A stretch of 64,000 nucleotides of DNA from an uncultured Candidatus Binatia bacterium (GTDB lineage: Bacteria > Desulfobacterota > Binatia > Bin18), in assembly GCA_965242605.1 (NCBI GenBank), contig CBDESS010000004.1, positions 5,835 to 69,834 of the forward strand, read 5' to 3'. The position numbers were made by a program, and so were the translations under genes. Positions 48,958 through 56,965 of the stretch are shown one piece after another; the stretch's first letter is position 1; each line of letters starts with the position of its first letter. The notes under the pieces were generated by a model. The model was not told the DNA's origin. It saw nothing but the letters and a program-made list of their open reading frames with translations, and did not search any database.

Positions 48958-50706
48958 TCAGTCGAAGAGGGGCCGCTGCCGGCTTCGCTTCGCACCGCTC
49001 CGGTCTGCGGTCCGGTTCTCGGTCATGCCGGTTGTGCGGGCGGCGGCGCACACCTCTCCCCAGCCGATGAAATAGTCATCAAAGTAGTGGATCGGATAGC
49101 GGCTGAGGCGTTTGACCTCGGCCCGGGTTGGAAGCCGGCCCAAGTGCCGGGCAATGTTCCTGACCTCTAATTGCAAGACTTTCTTTGAGACCTGGTAATC
49201 AATAGCGCCGATCCGACGGACCCGGCTGTTCTTCGCCTGAAGGTTTCGGGTCGCCTTGGCAAAAGGGTCTTCCCCTTGTCGCAAGGTTTCGTGTCGGCTC
49301 AGGGCGAGTTGGTGATAATTCTCCGATACCTCAATGCCGATAAACTTCCGTCCCAACTGCTCAGCGCACAGCGAGGTCGTACCAGCCCCGTTAAACGGGT
49401 CCAGCACGCTTTCCCCCTCAAAGGTGAGCAGGGCTATGAGGCGGCGCATCAGAGCAGGTGGGAGCTGGCAGGGATGGTCAACCCGGCGGGCATTATGCTT
49501 AAGCCGGTGAATATCCCACCACAGGTCGCTTATGTTCTCCCGGTCGGCGAGGCGGAGCCGGCGGCGATCCTTCACACAGTTGGCGCGCAGGCAGTACCAT
49601 TCCTTAAGAGAGCTCAGCGCCGTCTGGGTCTTCTGCTCATTGTTTTGCAGTCCAGGCAGAGGTCGGGGCGGTCCCTTTGAGCAGCACAGGATGGCGTAGT
49701 GAGCCGGCATGATCTTACGCACCGGCAGGCTGAGCCCCTCCCAGGCGATCCAATTCTGAAAGGCGAGACGATTCTTGAGATACAGAAAATGCCGAACCGC
49801 CCACTGGGGGATATTCAGGATGGCACAAGTCCTTCCCGGCTTCAGCACCCGCGCCAATTCGGCCAGCCAGCGGTCGCACCAGGCAAAATACTCCCGCGCA
49901 TCGTCCCAGGTATCGTACCGCTTGGCGATATTGTAGGGAGGATCAGCAAAGCAGAAATCAATGCTGTTCGACGCTATGGACGCCAAGAGGTCTAGGCTGT
50001 CTCCGTTGATCAGGCTTGACGACTGGAGCGAGGGGCCGGCACCGTCGTCGCTGAGCAATTGAACGGCTGATCTTGTGGAGCGGAGGCTTTGGACCGCTGT
50101 GAGGTCAAGGACATGCAGGCTTGTGTAGGGGGCAAGCCCAAAGACATCGCTCAGTCGGCCTGCAATCTGGTCCGCCTCAGCGTCGGGAGCCCAGTCAATA
50201 TCCCGCCAGACATCCGACATGAGCGTCCCGTACTCGTGGTAGGTGTGCTTTTTCCCGCCATAGTCCTTTGTCGTCTTGTCACACGCCGGGTAGTAGGTGT
50301 AGGCGATGCGCGTCTTGGTGTGCCGCAGGGGTGTGGGGTACTTCGTCAGGACGAGCAGGGCTGCGTGATGCTCTGGGAGCCGGCCGGGGTTGGCGACAGG
50401 CTCTCCGAGCTTTATGGCGACCCATAACTGAAAATGCAGCACATCCGTCACCTGCATCAGAGTGGTGGCGGCATCCACTGGTGTCGTGAGGAGACACAGC
50501 ACGGAATCATCGGGCAGCAGGCCGGCAAACCTGTGGAGATGCTTGAACCAAGCCCTGTCAGTTTCGCTGTCGGCCAGCGAGCGTCCATACGGCAGGATGA
50601 ATAGCCATACAGCGGGGTGTCTGTCGGGGGCGGGGAGTTGGCCGAGGTCCTGCAAGGACAGCCTGACGACGCACAGCGGCCTCACTCCTTCGGACTGGTG
50701 GGCCAT
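48958..50706 (-). CDS. DNA N4/N6 methyltransferase (beta-class, N6_N4_Mtase) with a ~235-aa N-terminal domain of unknown function and a C-terminal DNA-binding-like tail
   Basis: Motif IV FADPPYNI, motif I LDPFNGAGTT. N-terminal 235 aa lack recognisable motifs. C-terminal GRLPTRAEV…YFIGWGEV module. GC ~58%, lower than the surroundings. Start MAHQSEG at 50706, 1 nt after the stop of the upstream gene. Confidence 0.8.
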   Translation of the reverse strand: MAHQSEGVRPLCVVRLSLQDLGQLPAPDRHPAVWLFILPYGRSLADSETDRAWFKHLHRFAGLLPDDSVLCLLTTPVDAATTLMQVTDVLHFQLWVAIKLGEPVANPGRLPEHHAALLVLTKYPTPLRHTKTRIAYTYYPACDKTTKDYGGKKHTYHEYGTLMSDVWRDIDWAPDAEADQIAGRLSDVFGLAPYTSLHVLDLTAVQSLRSTRSAVQLLSDDGAGPSLQSSSLINGDSLDLLASIASNSIDFCFADPPYNIAKRYDTWDDAREYFAWCDRWLAELARVLKPGRTCAILNIPQWAVRHFLYLKNRLAFQNWIAWEGLSLPVRKIMPAHYAILCCSKGPPRPLPGLQNNEQKTQTALSSLKEWYCLRANCVKDRRRLRLADRENISDLWWDIHRLKHNARRVDHPCQLPPALMRRLIALLTFEGESVLDPFNGAGTTSLCAEQLGRKFIGIEVSENYHQLALSRHETLRQGEDPFAKATRNLQAKNSRVRRIGAIDYQVSKKVLQLEVRNIARHLGRLPTRAEVKRLSRYPIHYFDDYFIGWGEVCAAARTTGMTENRTADRSGAKRSRQRPLFD

Positions 50707-50707
50707 G

Positions 50708-51559
50708 TCAGTGCCCCGCTCCAAACTCTCGCAGATATTCGGCCAGAGCGTCAAGTTCGGTGTCACGGAATGTCACCACGTTCTGGCTGATACCAGAAAT
50801 CCTTGTCCGGGAGAAATCCCACCCGTGAAGACAGCACTTGAGACATTCGCGCACATAAGACTGGGCCAATTGATCCATAGTGTTGGCAGTGGCCCCGCCG
50901 GTAATCTCGGTGTCTGCCTGGCGTATCCGCCGGGCCAATTGGCCCATAGTGTTGGCAGTGGCCCCGCCGGTAATCCTGCTCACATGAATATAGCGTTGCC
51001 GCACAAAGGTGTCTAACTCGCTCTTATTCCCAAGCATCGTACCAATGCAGCACCTCTGGAATACGTCGTCTGGTCTGTCGAGATTTGTCGCAGCACCCCC
51101 GTGCAGAAGGACCATAGCCACATCCTGCATTTCCCGTGTGAGTTGTTCAGCGTTTACGAGCCTCGTCCCATCAACTGCCAGATTACGATTTGTCCATTTC
51201 ATATCCGTACTGAGCGACTGGAACCGATAGGAACATCTGCTGCCGCGCCAGATGAAACTCATGACTCGCTCAGGAAAAAAATTCTCAATTTCCCTCCCTA
51301 TACACTGTAAGAGTTCGCCTCCAATGTCTGTGAGCACCATGAGATGCTTGAGAAAAAGATTCCCCGCCATCCCCGATGTAGCGTCTAGTACCGATATCCA
51401 CGAAGTAGGCGACGAATCGGCTACATACAGGATGCCTATGAATTTCTCCTGGCTGTCAATGAGGCGTGGTATGACGCTGCTCTGCTGAGACCGATCTGTA
51501 AGGCTGTCAGGCCAGAATTTGACGGCCCTTGCCTCAAGATCACCCAAAGAGCGCGACAT
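50708..51559 (-). CDS. Hypothetical 283-aa protein translationally coupled to the MTase (candidate restriction/effector component). Contains an in-frame 23-aa tandem duplication.
   Basis: Lower-GC ORF with plausible protein composition. Internal repeat ITGGATANTMGQLARRIRQADTE / ITGGATANTMDQLAQSYVRECLK. Confidence 0.5.
   Translation of the reverse strand: MSRSLGDLEARAVKFWPDSLTDRSQQSSVIPRLIDSQEKFIGILYVADSSPTSWISVLDATSGMAGNLFLKHLMVLTDIGGELLQCIGREIENFFPERVMSFIWRGSRCSYRFQSLSTDMKWTNRNLAVDGTRLVNAEQLTREMQDVAMVLLHGGAATNLDRPDDVFQRCCIGTMLGNKSELDTFVRQRYIHVSRITGGATANTMGQLARRIRQADTEITGGATANTMDQLAQSYVRECLKCCLHGWDFSRTRISGISQNVVTFRDTELDALAEYLREFGAGH
50862..50976. repeat. 46-bp near-perfect direct repeat x2 with a 23-bp spacer (69-bp period, in-frame) inside the 283-aa gene
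   Basis: gggccaattgatccatagtgttggcagtggccccgccggtaatctc … gggccaattggcccatagtgttggcagtggccccgccggtaatcct. Confidence 0.8.
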
Positions 51560-52393: not shown

Positions 52394-52550
52394 GCTAAGC
52401 CTCCTTCTCCTGGGCGATCTTGCTGGGCACAATCAGGTCGATGCCGTATGGCTTGCCATCAAGTGTGATTGTCAATCCGGCGCAACGCTTCTTCCACACG
52501 GTCGAGCCACCGCGCCAAAGACCCCCATGCCGCGGATGTCTCTCCGTATC

Positions 52551-53402: not shown

Positions 53403-53831
53403 GGCAATGTTCTCCTCTTCTGCGATCCTTCCACTTTGTGCCGTTTGCAACTCCGAGGTTCCTCGCGGCGTCTGGAGTCAAGATATAGGCCGGTGCCAGC
53501 ACCAAAAGGGCGAGGGTGACGACGTTGCCCATTTTGCCGAGCAGGGCTGGGGGACAGGTCAAGGTAGTACATATCAGACTTGAGTTCGTCGCGTTTGTCG
53601 TCTACAAGGATAGCAAAGTTCGCTAGGTGCAGACATACAGTCCACACGCAGAGGAGGCAATAGGCTGCGACTCGGACTCGTCAGCGGCTACTCAGGCCCA
53701 AAGATGTACGAAACCCTGGGAGGTTATCCTCAGGGGCCGAACGGCTGGGCTTTGACTCGGGCTGGACTGGCGAGGTGTGGAGGAAAGCCGCATGAAGCAT
53801 CCACGGGTCAACCATCCCCCGCTGCCCACCT

Positions 53832-56004
53832 ATGTCGGAGGACGGCGTGAAACTGAAACGCGAAGGCGGAAAGATATGGAGCCGCGTTCGCCGAAAATGG
53901 CTTGTCGAAACGCCGGAAGAGTCTGTCCGTCAGCAATACCTCCTCGTCCTGCTCTACGAATACGGCTACGGTCTGGAGCAGATTGCCGAAGAAGGAGCAG
54001 CTTGCGGACAATCCGCTTGAAGACTTATTTCGAAGGACAAAGGAGCACTACCGGGAAGATCGTATCTTCGCTGAAAACGAATGTCTGAACCTGAAGCCCA
54101 CGACCGGCATTGAGATCGTGCGACTTCTCGAACGCTATAACCTCTCCGACACGAGCGAGGACATCAAGGGTATTGCCTTCGAGCGCTTCCTGGGCAGGAC
54201 CTTCCGGGGTGAGATTGGTCAGTTCTTTACGCCACGTCCGATTGTCGAGTTCATGGTTCGTATGCTGGCCCCGAAGGAAGGCGAGGTCATTTGCGACCCG
54301 GCCAGCGGCTCCGGCGGCTTCTTGATCCGCTTTTTTGAGATCGTCCGGGAGCGAATTCTTGCTGACGTGGACCGGCAATACCAGGAGTTCCGCAGCGAAG
54401 TCAAAAGCAATAAGCAGCAGACTCAGGAGGAAAAAGCCGAAGCGCTCCGCACCAAGTACGCCGAATTGCAAAAGACTCTCGATAACGGCACCTGTGGCTC
54501 CCGGCTCTGGAACTTGGCGAACCGCTGCATCTATGGCACGGACGCGAACGACCGCATGGCCCGCACCAGCAAGATGAACATGATTATGCACGGCGATGGC
54601 CATGGCGGTGTGCATCACCATGACGGCTTTCTGAACGTAAACGGCATCTTTGAAGGCCGTTTCGACATCATCCTGACCAACCCGCCCTTTGGTTCGAGCG
54701 TTGAACCTTCGGACACGGTTCTTGAAGAACAAGTCACACTCCCCGACGAACTCGAACACCACTATGCCAACATCTACGGCGACCATTACCGCGCCGCGCT
54801 CAGCCGTCTCCGTGCCGCCACGGGTAAGCCTATCGCCAGCCTGTTCGCGTTGCCGACTATAAAGAGAAATCGCAGGGGCGGCAAGGTCAAGACCGGGCTT
54901 CTTTTTCAGGAAACCCGAGAGAAATACGCCCCTGAGATTGCCGAGCGAACCGGAACATTCGAAGCGTCCATTGCCGAGGCCAAGAAAGATAAGGCTACTG
55001 ACCGACGCAAGGCTCTGCAAGCCGCACTCAAGCAATATCAACGCGAGACTGAAGCGAAAATCCGAGCCGAAACCCGCGCCCTGCTCAAGTCCCGCTTCCC
55101 CTATCCTGTCTTTCTCTACGAAGCCAAGCATGTCGGCATCACCGCCACCGGTGAAACTGACCGCGTACCGAATGAGCTTGTGCCCGGTGATTCCACGCCA
55201 GCGGGAATAGAAAAGACTACTCTCGAATTCTACCAAGAGTTTAGGACAAGCCCGGAAGCCTTGTCATTGTGGCGGTCGCGAGTAATAGGCGTTAGCCCTT
55301 TCCCTGCCTGCTTTCGCATATCATTCTCCGACACGCATCGCTGGGACCCCGGCAGTTTTTGCCTTTTGGACTGGCACTGGGAGCCGAGCGTACTAAATCC
55401 AATTGGCAGTGTTTTGAAGCCGCGTAGAGAAAAAGTTGACAGAAACCGCCATAGTTTTACGAGTCTGCAACCCATTACGATCCATTTCGACGGTTCACTA
55501 GACAAGCGAAGTGTCAAGCCTGATAAAGAATACTCAATGGATCTCTTTTTTGCTCGTTCCGGTGATTTGGTCGTTGCGAAGATAGACCTCAAGAATGGAG
55601 CGGTTGGCGTCGTTCCAGAAGGCTGGGAGAACGTAGCTGTTACCGGACATTTTGCTGTTTATGAAGTTGATTCAGAGAAAGTCCTTGTTCAGTGGTTACA
55701 TCGTATTATTCAGCAACCAGATTTTAAGGAGTATCTGTGGCGCAATAAAGTTGGTGCCGAAGGTCGGAAAGAGGTCAAGTTGGATTTCTTCGAGTCAATT
55801 CCAATTCCGCTTCCGGACATCGCCACACAAGAGGCTATCCTAATGGAGCGTGACCTAATCCGATCGGAAATTGATCGCTTGACTCAACTTCTAACAGAAT
55901 CCGAATTCCATCTGACTGAGATGGTTCATGGACGCATTCCTCCTCGTCGAAAACAGAATATTTTGCGGCCGATAAAGAACGCTATCCGCGAGGAAGAACC
56001 TTGA
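53832..56004 (+). pseudogene. Single-chain N6-adenine DNA methyltransferase (gamma-class, HsdM-like) fused to a C-terminal HsdS-type TRD. The N-terminal HSDR_N-like segment lies in a different frame (frameshift near 53993-54005).
   Basis: Motif X FTPRPIVEFMVRML, motif I GEVICDPASGSGGFL, motif IV ILTNPPFG. C-terminal TRD plus the conserved HsdS helix IPIPLPDIATQEAILMERDLIRSEIDRLTQLL. Upstream ORF 53832..54020 encodes PEESVRQQYLLVLLYEYGYGLEQIAEE (HSDR_N_2-like) and joins the main frame only via a 1-nt shift in gccgaagaaggagcag. Confidence 0.65.
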
Positions 56005-56041
56005 TTGGTCCAATATTCTTCGGCCGCCGAGCCACGGGCTG

Positions 56042-56068
56042 AAAAAAGGGCGGCCTGACAGGCCGCCC
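56042..56068 (-). terminator. Rho-independent terminator for the minus-strand hydrolase gene
   Basis: gggcggcct-gac-aggccgccc 9-bp stem. On the minus strand it is followed by TTTTTT (plus-strand aaaaaa at 56042-56047). Confidence 0.55.
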
Positions 56069-56080
56069 CATCTGAGACCA

Positions 56081-56965
56081 CTAGGCGGTGTGGGTCTTGA
56101 AGAAGGTACCGATCTGGTCAATCGCCCGCTGCCCTTCGGGCAGAATCGGGGCGAACATATGCCAGACATGGGGCATTTCGTCCCATACCTTGAGGGTCAC
56201 GTCCACATCGGACTTACGCGCCCGCTCGGCAAACCGGGTAGAATCGTCCAGCAGGGTCTCGGCGTCGCCGACCTGGAGCAGCAGCGGCGGCAGGCCGGCC
56301 AGATTGGCGTGCAGCGGCGCGGCCAGCGGGTCCTTAGGGTCAGCCCCGCCCAGATACAGCTTGGCCATGCCCAGCAGCCCTTCTTTCTGGACAACCGGGT
56401 CTGCCGCGGCCCGGGTGGTCATCGACTCGCCGGTCCCCTCCATATCGACCCACGGGGAAATCCCAACGCCGGCCGCGGGCAGAGGCTTCCCCGCATCCCG
56501 AATGGCTAACAGGCTGGCCAAGGCCAGCCCGCCACCGGCCGAATCGCCGGCAATCGCAATGTTTGCAGGGCTGATGCTTTGGTCAAGCAACCAGCCATAG
56601 GCTGCCACGGCATCATTAACCGGGGCCGGAAACGGATGCTCGGGAGCCAGGCGATAGTTGAGCGACAGCACCCGCGCACCGGCTGCCTTTGACAAACGCC
56701 CGGTCATATCGCGGTGGGAGCCGGCCGAGCCCATGACATAGCCGCCGCCGTGGACGTACAGAATGACCTTGTTCCCGTCCACGCCCTCGGCGACATGCCA
56801 TTCGGCCGACACCCCGCCGGCCTCAACCGGGCTGCACGACACGCCGCTGGGAATCGGCGTGTCGATCATAATCGCCCGCATGGCGTTGATATCCTTTGCC
56901 GCGCCCATCTTCTCGCCCATCTCTTTGAACATGCCTAGGACCTGTTGCAGTTGTACGCTGGCCAT
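56081..56965 (-). CDS. Alpha/beta hydrolase (HSL-type esterase/lipase)
   Basis: HGGGY oxyanion motif, GDSAGG nucleophile elbow. Start MASVQLQQV at 56965 with AGGAGG RBS. Confidence 0.8.
   Translation of the reverse strand: MASVQLQQVLGMFKEMGEKMGAAKDINAMRAIMIDTPIPSGVSCSPVEAGGVSAEWHVAEGVDGNKVILYVHGGGYVMGSAGSHRDMTGRLSKAAGARVLSLNYRLAPEHPFPAPVNDAVAAYGWLLDQSISPANIAIAGDSAGGGLALASLLAIRDAGKPLPAAGVGISPWVDMEGTGESMTTRAAADPVVQKEGLLGMAKLYLGGADPKDPLAAPLHANLAGLPPLLLQVGDAETLLDDSTRFAERARKSDVDVTLKVWDEMPHVWHMFAPILPEGQRAIDQIGTFFKTHTA

Follow-up and report, generated by a model that had tools for sequence, protein, structure and literature searches.

The interrupted R-M gene that begins at position 53792 of the window (the whole 64,000-nucleotide stretch of DNA that was analysed, from an uncultured Candidatus Binatia bacterium) is very probably a recently inactivated pseudogene of a single-chain, ATP-independent enzyme of the BcgI/BsaXI kind (Type IIB-like), destroyed by three independent lesions. 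We propose that the ancestral protein carried an N-terminal PD-(D/E)xK nuclease domain (HSDR_N_2), a multi-helical connector, a gamma methyltransferase with a helical insertion, and a single TRD with a conserved helix. A 2-nt deletion 14 codons past the start broke the reading frame, a 515-nt out-of-frame deletion removed the nuclease catalytic core and the connector, and a 255-nt in-frame deletion removed the C-terminal part of the methyltransferase fold. The lesions themselves, synteny, the architecture of the family, and the conservation of catalytic residues in its intact members were observed directly.

Three lesions relative to an intact orthologue

The locus contains two ORFs in different frames, 53832-54020 (62 aa) and 53902-56004 (700 aa from TTG). 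The initial annotation listed both, and both are present in the ORF list; it attributed the change of frame to a 1-nt shift at "gaagaagga." A homology search returned two intact relatives, P0002 (979 aa, 81% identical) and P0003 (993 aa, 69% identical). The P0002 gene is found on contigs L001 and L002, where, as in the window, it follows PhyH and precedes Abhydrolase_3 and Lactamase_B. This synteny (88-93% nt identity) places an intact gene in the same neighbourhood, and that gene shares ~92% nt identity with the window copy. In a global DNA alignment with L001, the gaps in the window are exactly 2 nt, 515 nt, and 255 nt, and BLASTP of P0002 against the window ORF gave the same two protein gaps. 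No second copy (paralogue) of the gene was found within the window. The features of the locus are as follows.

48958-51559, minus strand: adjacent Type II R-M system, ORFs compared with L001
53792..53835, plus strand: native start and first 14 codons (MKHPRVNHPPLPTY), matching the start of P0002 (MKHPRVNHPPRPAYV)
53835..53836, plus strand: lesion 1, a 2-nt deletion (CTATGTCGCGGAG in L001, CTATGTCGGAGG in the window), from pairwise DNA alignment with L001
53836..53992, plus strand: N-terminal remnant, P0002 residues ~16-68, ending in the first HSDR_N_2 helix (TPEESVRQQYLLVLLYEYGYGLEQIAEE); 91% nt identity to L001 8047-8203
53992..53993, plus strand: lesion 2, junction of the 515-nt deletion (L001 8204-8718, ~P0002 residues 69-239), from DNA alignment
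53993..54906, plus strand: end of the connector and N-terminal half of the gamma N6-adenine methyltransferase; 93% nt identity to L001 8719-9632
54223-54237, plus strand: FFTPR motif
54295-54321, plus strand: motif I, DPASGSGGF
54679-54690, plus strand: motif IV, NPPF
54906..54907, plus strand: lesion 3, junction of the 255-nt in-frame deletion (L001 9633-9887, P0002 545-629: IERCLDLLKPGGRLGIVLPEGVFNNPSL...VKASLLFMQKF...), from DNA alignment and BLASTP
54907..55250, plus strand: rest of the long helical hairpin and the linker that follow the methyltransferase core, including YPVFLYEAKHVGITATGE at 55102-55155, from alignment with P0002 630-750
55251..56004, plus strand: single HsdS-type TRD, one long conserved helix (55819-55926), and stop codon; PADLOC Specificity_I, E 3e-11
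56047..56069, no strand assigned: terminator-like hairpin, rich in GC and with T runs, separating the gene from the convergent hydrolase gene

The ATG at 53832, from which the shorter ORF had been read, is not the native start. The native ATG lies at 53792 (MKHPRVNHPP...), in a third frame and with GGAGGA just 5' of it, and its frame is parted from that of the N-terminal piece by the 2-nt deletion at 53835/53836. This first lesion shifts the frame 14 codons past the native ATG, such that KIW falls 79 nt after the ATG in the window versus 81 nt in L001. Translation from 53792 yields 98 residues, most of them out of frame, before a stop at 54088. The deposited annotation (P0001, the window's own product) is a 673-aa protein that begins at TTG 53983, with GGAG 4 nt upstream.

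The N-terminal remnant, in the frame of ORF 53832-54020, keeps only E67/E68 of the nuclease residues. Its suggested HSDR_N-like character was borne out: Pfam HSDR_N_2, a model of 110 positions, matches the short ORF over positions 1-27 only (E 4.9e-4; 20.6 bits against a curated cut-off of 25), and PADLOC PDLC03018 matches it over positions 3-50 (E 3.7e-12).

DNA alignment, junction sequences, and profile coordinates all identify the "gaagaagga" site as the junction of the 515-nt deletion, which changes the frame because 515 equals 3 x 171 + 2. In PDLC03018 the short ORF covers positions 3-50 and the long ORF starts from 240, with ~190 profile positions absent between them; in the NCBIfam MAD2 model, the short ORF aligns to positions 7-44 and the long ORF begins at 246, leaving ~200 residues unaccounted for. 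P0002 scores 742 bits with PDLC03018, the window copy 368. A simple 1-nt frameshift is ruled out by the DNA alignment with L001 and by this jump in profile coordinates.

Two ORFs lying one frame step apart are also what a slippage-prone, phase-variable switch at "gaagaagga" would present, toggling a complete enzyme. No tandem or homopolymer tract is present, however; a search for tandem repeats in 53500-56200 (minimum score 30) returned none, and the junction sequence, GCCGAAGAAGGAGCAG, is a deletion scar, not the repeat tract of a phase-variable gene. The change of frame is a by-product of the 515-nt deletion, and repairing it would bring back neither the nuclease core and connector nor the missing part of the methyltransferase fold, while the 2-nt deletion would still cut off the start codon. 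Given the missing repeat tract and the scar, we rejected the switch, to which we assign a negligible probability. Among the options first raised for the locus (a pseudogene, a sequencing error, or a slippage switch), the pseudogene is the best supported; it is an ordinary one of a known kind, and not a switch.

Lesion 3 removes 85 codons after NPPF, a segment that reads IERCLDLLKPGGRLGIVLPEG...VKASLLFMQKF in the orthologue. Microhomology amounts to 2-5 nt at the 515-nt junction (L001 flanks), and there is essentially none at the 255-nt junction. The window further differs from L001 by a 3-nt indel at 54997 and by a 1-nt difference at 55966 (L001 10950). At the latter position the window agrees with P0003, so the L001 state is derived. 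The C-terminus of P0002 is shortened by this 1-nt difference (ending ...TPPRQK), and the window and P0003 run ~16 residues further; since they share this longer reading past 55966, the window keeps the ancestral C-terminal tail.

To describe what was lost, we used an alignment of 47 full-length relatives containing 204 invariant columns, 82 of which are missing from the window. The 515-nt deletion strips the PD-(D/E)xK core of D82, E103, and K105 and also removes most of the connector; 26 invariant residues fall within the 255-nt deletion. The latter segment, P0002 545-629, aligns to BsaXI 547-~630, EcoR124 HsdM 332-433, and M.TaqI 145-181. In an AlphaFold model of P0002 it forms strands 552-563, 583-590, and 605-612, and it is predicted to supply the remaining strands and helices of the methyltransferase fold. 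Helices are predicted at P0002 615-656 and 661-693 in the same model.

What remains of the modification half is recognizable. The long ORF matches Pfam N6_Mtase (E 9e-24), with a weak match to Methylase_S, and motif I precedes motif IV as the gamma-class assignment requires; the domain is not complete, because the 85 codons after NPPF are gone. The TRD part carries no lesion when compared with the orthologues and shares 93% nt identity with L001. The HsdS-type TRD and long C-terminal helix were confirmed by the Specificity_I match, which covers window residues 461-638; one TRD-helix unit only is present, and the C-terminal part of the P0002 model matches HsdS (3okg, 5ybb_D) and the BsaXI S chain. 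The initial annotation was thus right about the domains, in that one polypeptide combined an HsdS-type TRD with a gamma N6-methyltransferase and an HSDR_N_2-like nuclease start.

Measured against a working Type IIB enzyme, the window copy has no PD-(D/E)xK nuclease, only E67/E68 being left, and no full gamma N6-adenine methyltransferase, since residues 545-629 are deleted despite the presence of motifs I and IV. With both activities structurally destroyed, a one-base repair cannot restore the protein. The long ORF, deposited as a 673-aa product, has neither catalytic capacity left, and the remnant is, we infer, without function.

Family architecture and class of the ancestral enzyme

In P0002, the order of parts is HSDR_N_2 (E 4e-22), a helical region, N6_Mtase (with motif I before NPPF), a helical insertion, an HsdS-type TRD, and a long C-terminal helix. 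The helical connector between nuclease and methyltransferase spans ~150 residues in the intact orthologues. The best solved relative is RM.BsaXI, both by sequence profile (E 2e-36) and by fold (Foldseek E 6e-19 over ~900 columns); the TM-score of the fold match is low owing to the multi-domain model (pLDDT 73.8, pTM 0.46). In BsaXI, residues E73, D90, E105, and K107 are needed for cleavage, as demonstrated by mutagenesis, and are described as conserved across Type IIB enzymes (PMC11997821). By profile alignment, these residues correspond to E67/E68, D82, E103, and K105, which are invariant in the 47 sequences. The N-terminal nuclease, left tentative before, can therefore be assigned for the intact family through the residues aligned to BsaXI (PMC11997821); in the window its core is deleted.

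Downstream of relatives of ~750 aa lies an S gene of 448-450 aa that overlaps the RM gene, with no helicase. At all other loci with the same TRD type (66/66), the TRD is located in a separate S ORF (mostly 450-500 aa) beside a ~750-aa RM gene, likewise with no helicase. The family resembles the BcgI/BsaXI "RM + S" design, in which a nuclease-connector-gamma-methylase RM protein is usually followed by a separate two-TRD S gene. The lineage in which RM and TRD are fused comprises P0002, P0003, P0006, and a few others (964-1009 aa), with a single TRD-helix unit. A helicase or ATPase domain was found neither in the protein nor in the adjacent genes of the window, L001, L034, and L037; like Type IIB systems, these loci have no ATP-dependent translocase. 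The absence of an ATPase or translocase makes Type IIB (BcgI/BsaXI-like) the closest class and sets aside the earlier suggestion of a Type ISP-like protein.

The intact relatives share with BsaXI and BcgI a PD-(D/E)xK nuclease, a multi-helical connector, a gamma methyltransferase with helical additions, an HsdS-type module, and the lack of an ATPase, although the intact family is only ~20% identical to BsaXI. In the window lineage, the S part is fused to RM and has one TRD-helix unit, versus TRD1-CR1-TRD2-CR2 in BsaXI and BcgI. The window copy itself, without its nuclease core, its connector, and part of its methyltransferase, cannot work like BsaXI.

In AloI, TstI, and HaeIV, nuclease, methyltransferase, and DNA recognition are combined in one polypeptide, and HaeIV was reported to be a homodimer (PMC4027205). 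Our fused proteins are likened to these enzymes as single polypeptides, by architecture and not by sequence, and homodimerization such as that of HaeIV is what a single-TRD fusion would need. They differ in that characterized single-chain Type IIB enzymes and modelled RMS fusions have two TRDs (PMC11997821), whereas P0002 and P0003 carry one. We predict that the intact single-TRD fusion homodimerizes, reads a symmetric bipartite site, and cuts on both sides of it. An RM protein fused to a single TRD is an uncharacterized and mildly novel sub-architecture of Type IIB. A literature search for HSDR_N_2 combined with a methyltransferase found only a general PD-(D/E)xK survey.

Relatives of the TRD (L007-L033 and L042-L098; 50-64% aa identity) occur in many phyla, including Bacteroidota, Nitrospira, NC10, Acidobacteriota, and Cyanobacteria, and in these loci the TRD is always in a separate S ORF just 3' of a ~750-aa RM gene. 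Specificity domains are seldom conserved this widely, which suggests that these loci share a recognition half-site that has spread by horizontal transfer.

Other families were considered. The methyltransferase core and TRD are homologous to those of Type I HsdM and HsdS; PADLOC places P0002 under "MTase_I" (PDLC03018, 742 bits), and HsdM structures are the next-best matches. In contrast to Type I systems, the nuclease is fused to the N-terminus of the methylase and no HsdR helicase gene lies nearby, HsdR being absent from every neighbourhood examined. Membership in HsdM was rejected because TIGR00497, whose cut-off is 242.75 bits, scores the window ORF at 12.7 and P0002 at 24.5. The MADS protein MAD2 (NF047738), the best NCBIfam match, has the same HSDR_N_2 plus N6_Mtase layout; with 146.7 bits for the window ORF and 282.4 for P0002 against an equivalog cut-off of 720, it was rejected as well, and no other MADS genes were found in the neighbourhoods seen. 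Scores for the BREX PglX and Alw26I families fell far below their cut-offs. Type ISP enzymes (LlaGI/LlaBIII-like) were excluded because the RecA-like ATPase is absent between nuclease and methyltransferase, where a helical connector lies instead; LlaBIII was a weak, partial fold match at rank 24.

Neighbouring genes and sister strains

The 90% cluster of P0002 contains two more damaged alleles, from independent assemblies (L040 and L041). Across the gene, L040 (6001-8514) differs from L001 by a single additional G, at codon 153, by which the nuclease domain is split off, and 2.1 kb of its neighbouring BanI-like R-M system are also gone. L041 (6001-6588) has a 2,968-bp deletion that leaves the first 195 codons. 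L040 and L041 are near-identical sister strains with independent lesions, which also differ from those of the window.

Damage is evident in the adjacent Type II R-M system of the window too. Its N6_N4 methylase ORF (48958-50766, 602 aa) is intact. The BanI-like nuclease ORF (50708-51559) encodes 283 aa versus 340 aa in L001, with a 240-nt in-frame deletion near 50780 that removes EGRTDMAFDIVAE...CAIEVSFQVTT..., probably the catalytic core, and a 69-nt duplication (ITGGATANTMGQLA repeated) near 50905-50973. The system looks as if its nuclease is dead and its methylase has been kept. Restriction functions near the gene are lost repeatedly among close strains.

Larger differences from L001 are scattered around the gene. 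At window positions 56018-56053, between the gene and the Abhydrolase_3 gene, 2.9 kb are absent relative to L001 11002-13881, which in L001 hold a 144-aa ORF, a GMC-type oxidoreductase, and a 166-aa ORF. At 52409-52548, the SnoaL_4 gene (L001 6303-6854) is absent, with ~139 nt in its place. Several large indels thus separate the window from L001 within 14 kb at just ~8% divergence. The intact P0003 gene is adjoined in L003 11162-15160 (a Candidatus Entotheonella MAG) by an AAA_15/AAA_21 ATPase gene, a 199-aa ORF, and IS fragments (DDE_Tnp_1), a defence-island-like context unlike the metabolic neighbourhood in the window.

These comparisons bear on whether the lesions could be assembly or sequencing artefacts that conceal an intact gene. 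The retained sequence does resemble that of a functional gene, lesion 1 is a CGCG-to-CG contraction that a sequencing error could produce, and the sole difference of L040 from L001 is a G run longer by one G. Neither k-mer collapse nor homopolymer error, on the other hand, typically produces deletions of 515 and 255 nt with ≤5 nt of microhomology. Comparable clean deletions occur nearby (the BanI-like nuclease gene has lost 240 nt, and 2.9 kb are missing downstream), and a clean deletion is also present in L041, an independent short-read assembly. Six flanking genes (PhyH, Abhydrolase_3, Lactamase_B, CoA_transf_3, EthD, and the N6_N4 methylase) are full length, equal in length to those of L001 and free of frameshifts, with omega values of 0.085-0.29, which indicates that the assembly is not generally frameshifted or error-ridden. 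An exact search of JGI metagenomes for the 515-nt deletion junction found none. We consider an artefact quite improbable.

Age of the inactivation and constraint on the remnant

The pseudogene is young. Read in the ancestral frame, the 717 retained codons contain no in-frame stops, and their omega versus L001 is 0.22. Of the 122 retained invariant residues, 121 are unchanged, and the sole change, E541G, is at a deletion junction. Because the retained codons still look selected by these two measures, the inactivation is recent; the gene died recently relative to the 8% divergence from L001. With P0003 as the outgroup, lineage-specific N:S is 32:32 in the window versus 31:36 in L001 (Fisher p 0.73), and the window ratio is far from the neutral expectation of ~3.4:1 (binomial p 2e-6). 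Relaxed selection was therefore not detected as a lineage-specific N:S difference from the intact sister lineage, a result that fits a young pseudogene and a constrained remnant alike. The closest relatives of the window lineage are 78% identical in genome_contigs (a Candidatus Entotheonella MAG) and 64% in metagenome_contigs.

The same data supply the evidence against a pseudogene. Retained codons that have not decayed would also fit ongoing constraint or an assembly artefact, and three lesions alongside so little substitutional drift are somewhat unexpected. An alternative hypothesis is that the remnant ORF (TTG 53983-56004, 673 aa) is still expressed and selected as a catalytically dead, TRD-bearing DNA-binding protein, such as a regulator, a decoy, or a partner of another enzyme. 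Its omega lies inside the range of the neighbouring functional genes (0.085-0.29), its TRD and C-terminal helix are free of lesions, 121 of its 122 invariant residues are unchanged, and TTG 53983, with its upstream GGAG, was chosen by the depositors' gene caller for P0001. A very young pseudogene would give the same signal, however, and the methyltransferase core that would serve as scaffold for the TRD is without three predicted strands and 26 invariant residues. The sister strains, moreover, lose the gene in other ways (a near-complete deletion in L041), so the lineage does not need it, and no truncated relatives were found in the homology search, genome_contigs, or metagenome_contigs. We regard a selected remnant as unlikely. 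A freshly exapted form of it, in which the 673-aa protein keeps the TRD and C-terminal helix for specific DNA binding as a regulator or decoy for a related enzyme, is an equally long shot; if true, it would explain the low omega and the 121 unchanged invariant residues despite three lesions.

With a recently inactivated pseudogene as the preferred reading, the database entry for the 673-aa protein needs a flag marking it as a fragment of a pseudogene, and neither a Type IIB/IIG enzyme nor the m6A motif that would result from one should be attributed to the strain. The importance of the locus beyond annotation is little. It does illustrate that an apparent 1-nt slip may be the scar of a large deletion, visible only against an intact orthologue, and it shows on a small scale how closely related strains have lost restriction functions repeatedly and independently. 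As an uncharacterized single-TRD fusion variant of BsaXI-like enzymes, the intact orthologues lend themselves to biochemical testing.
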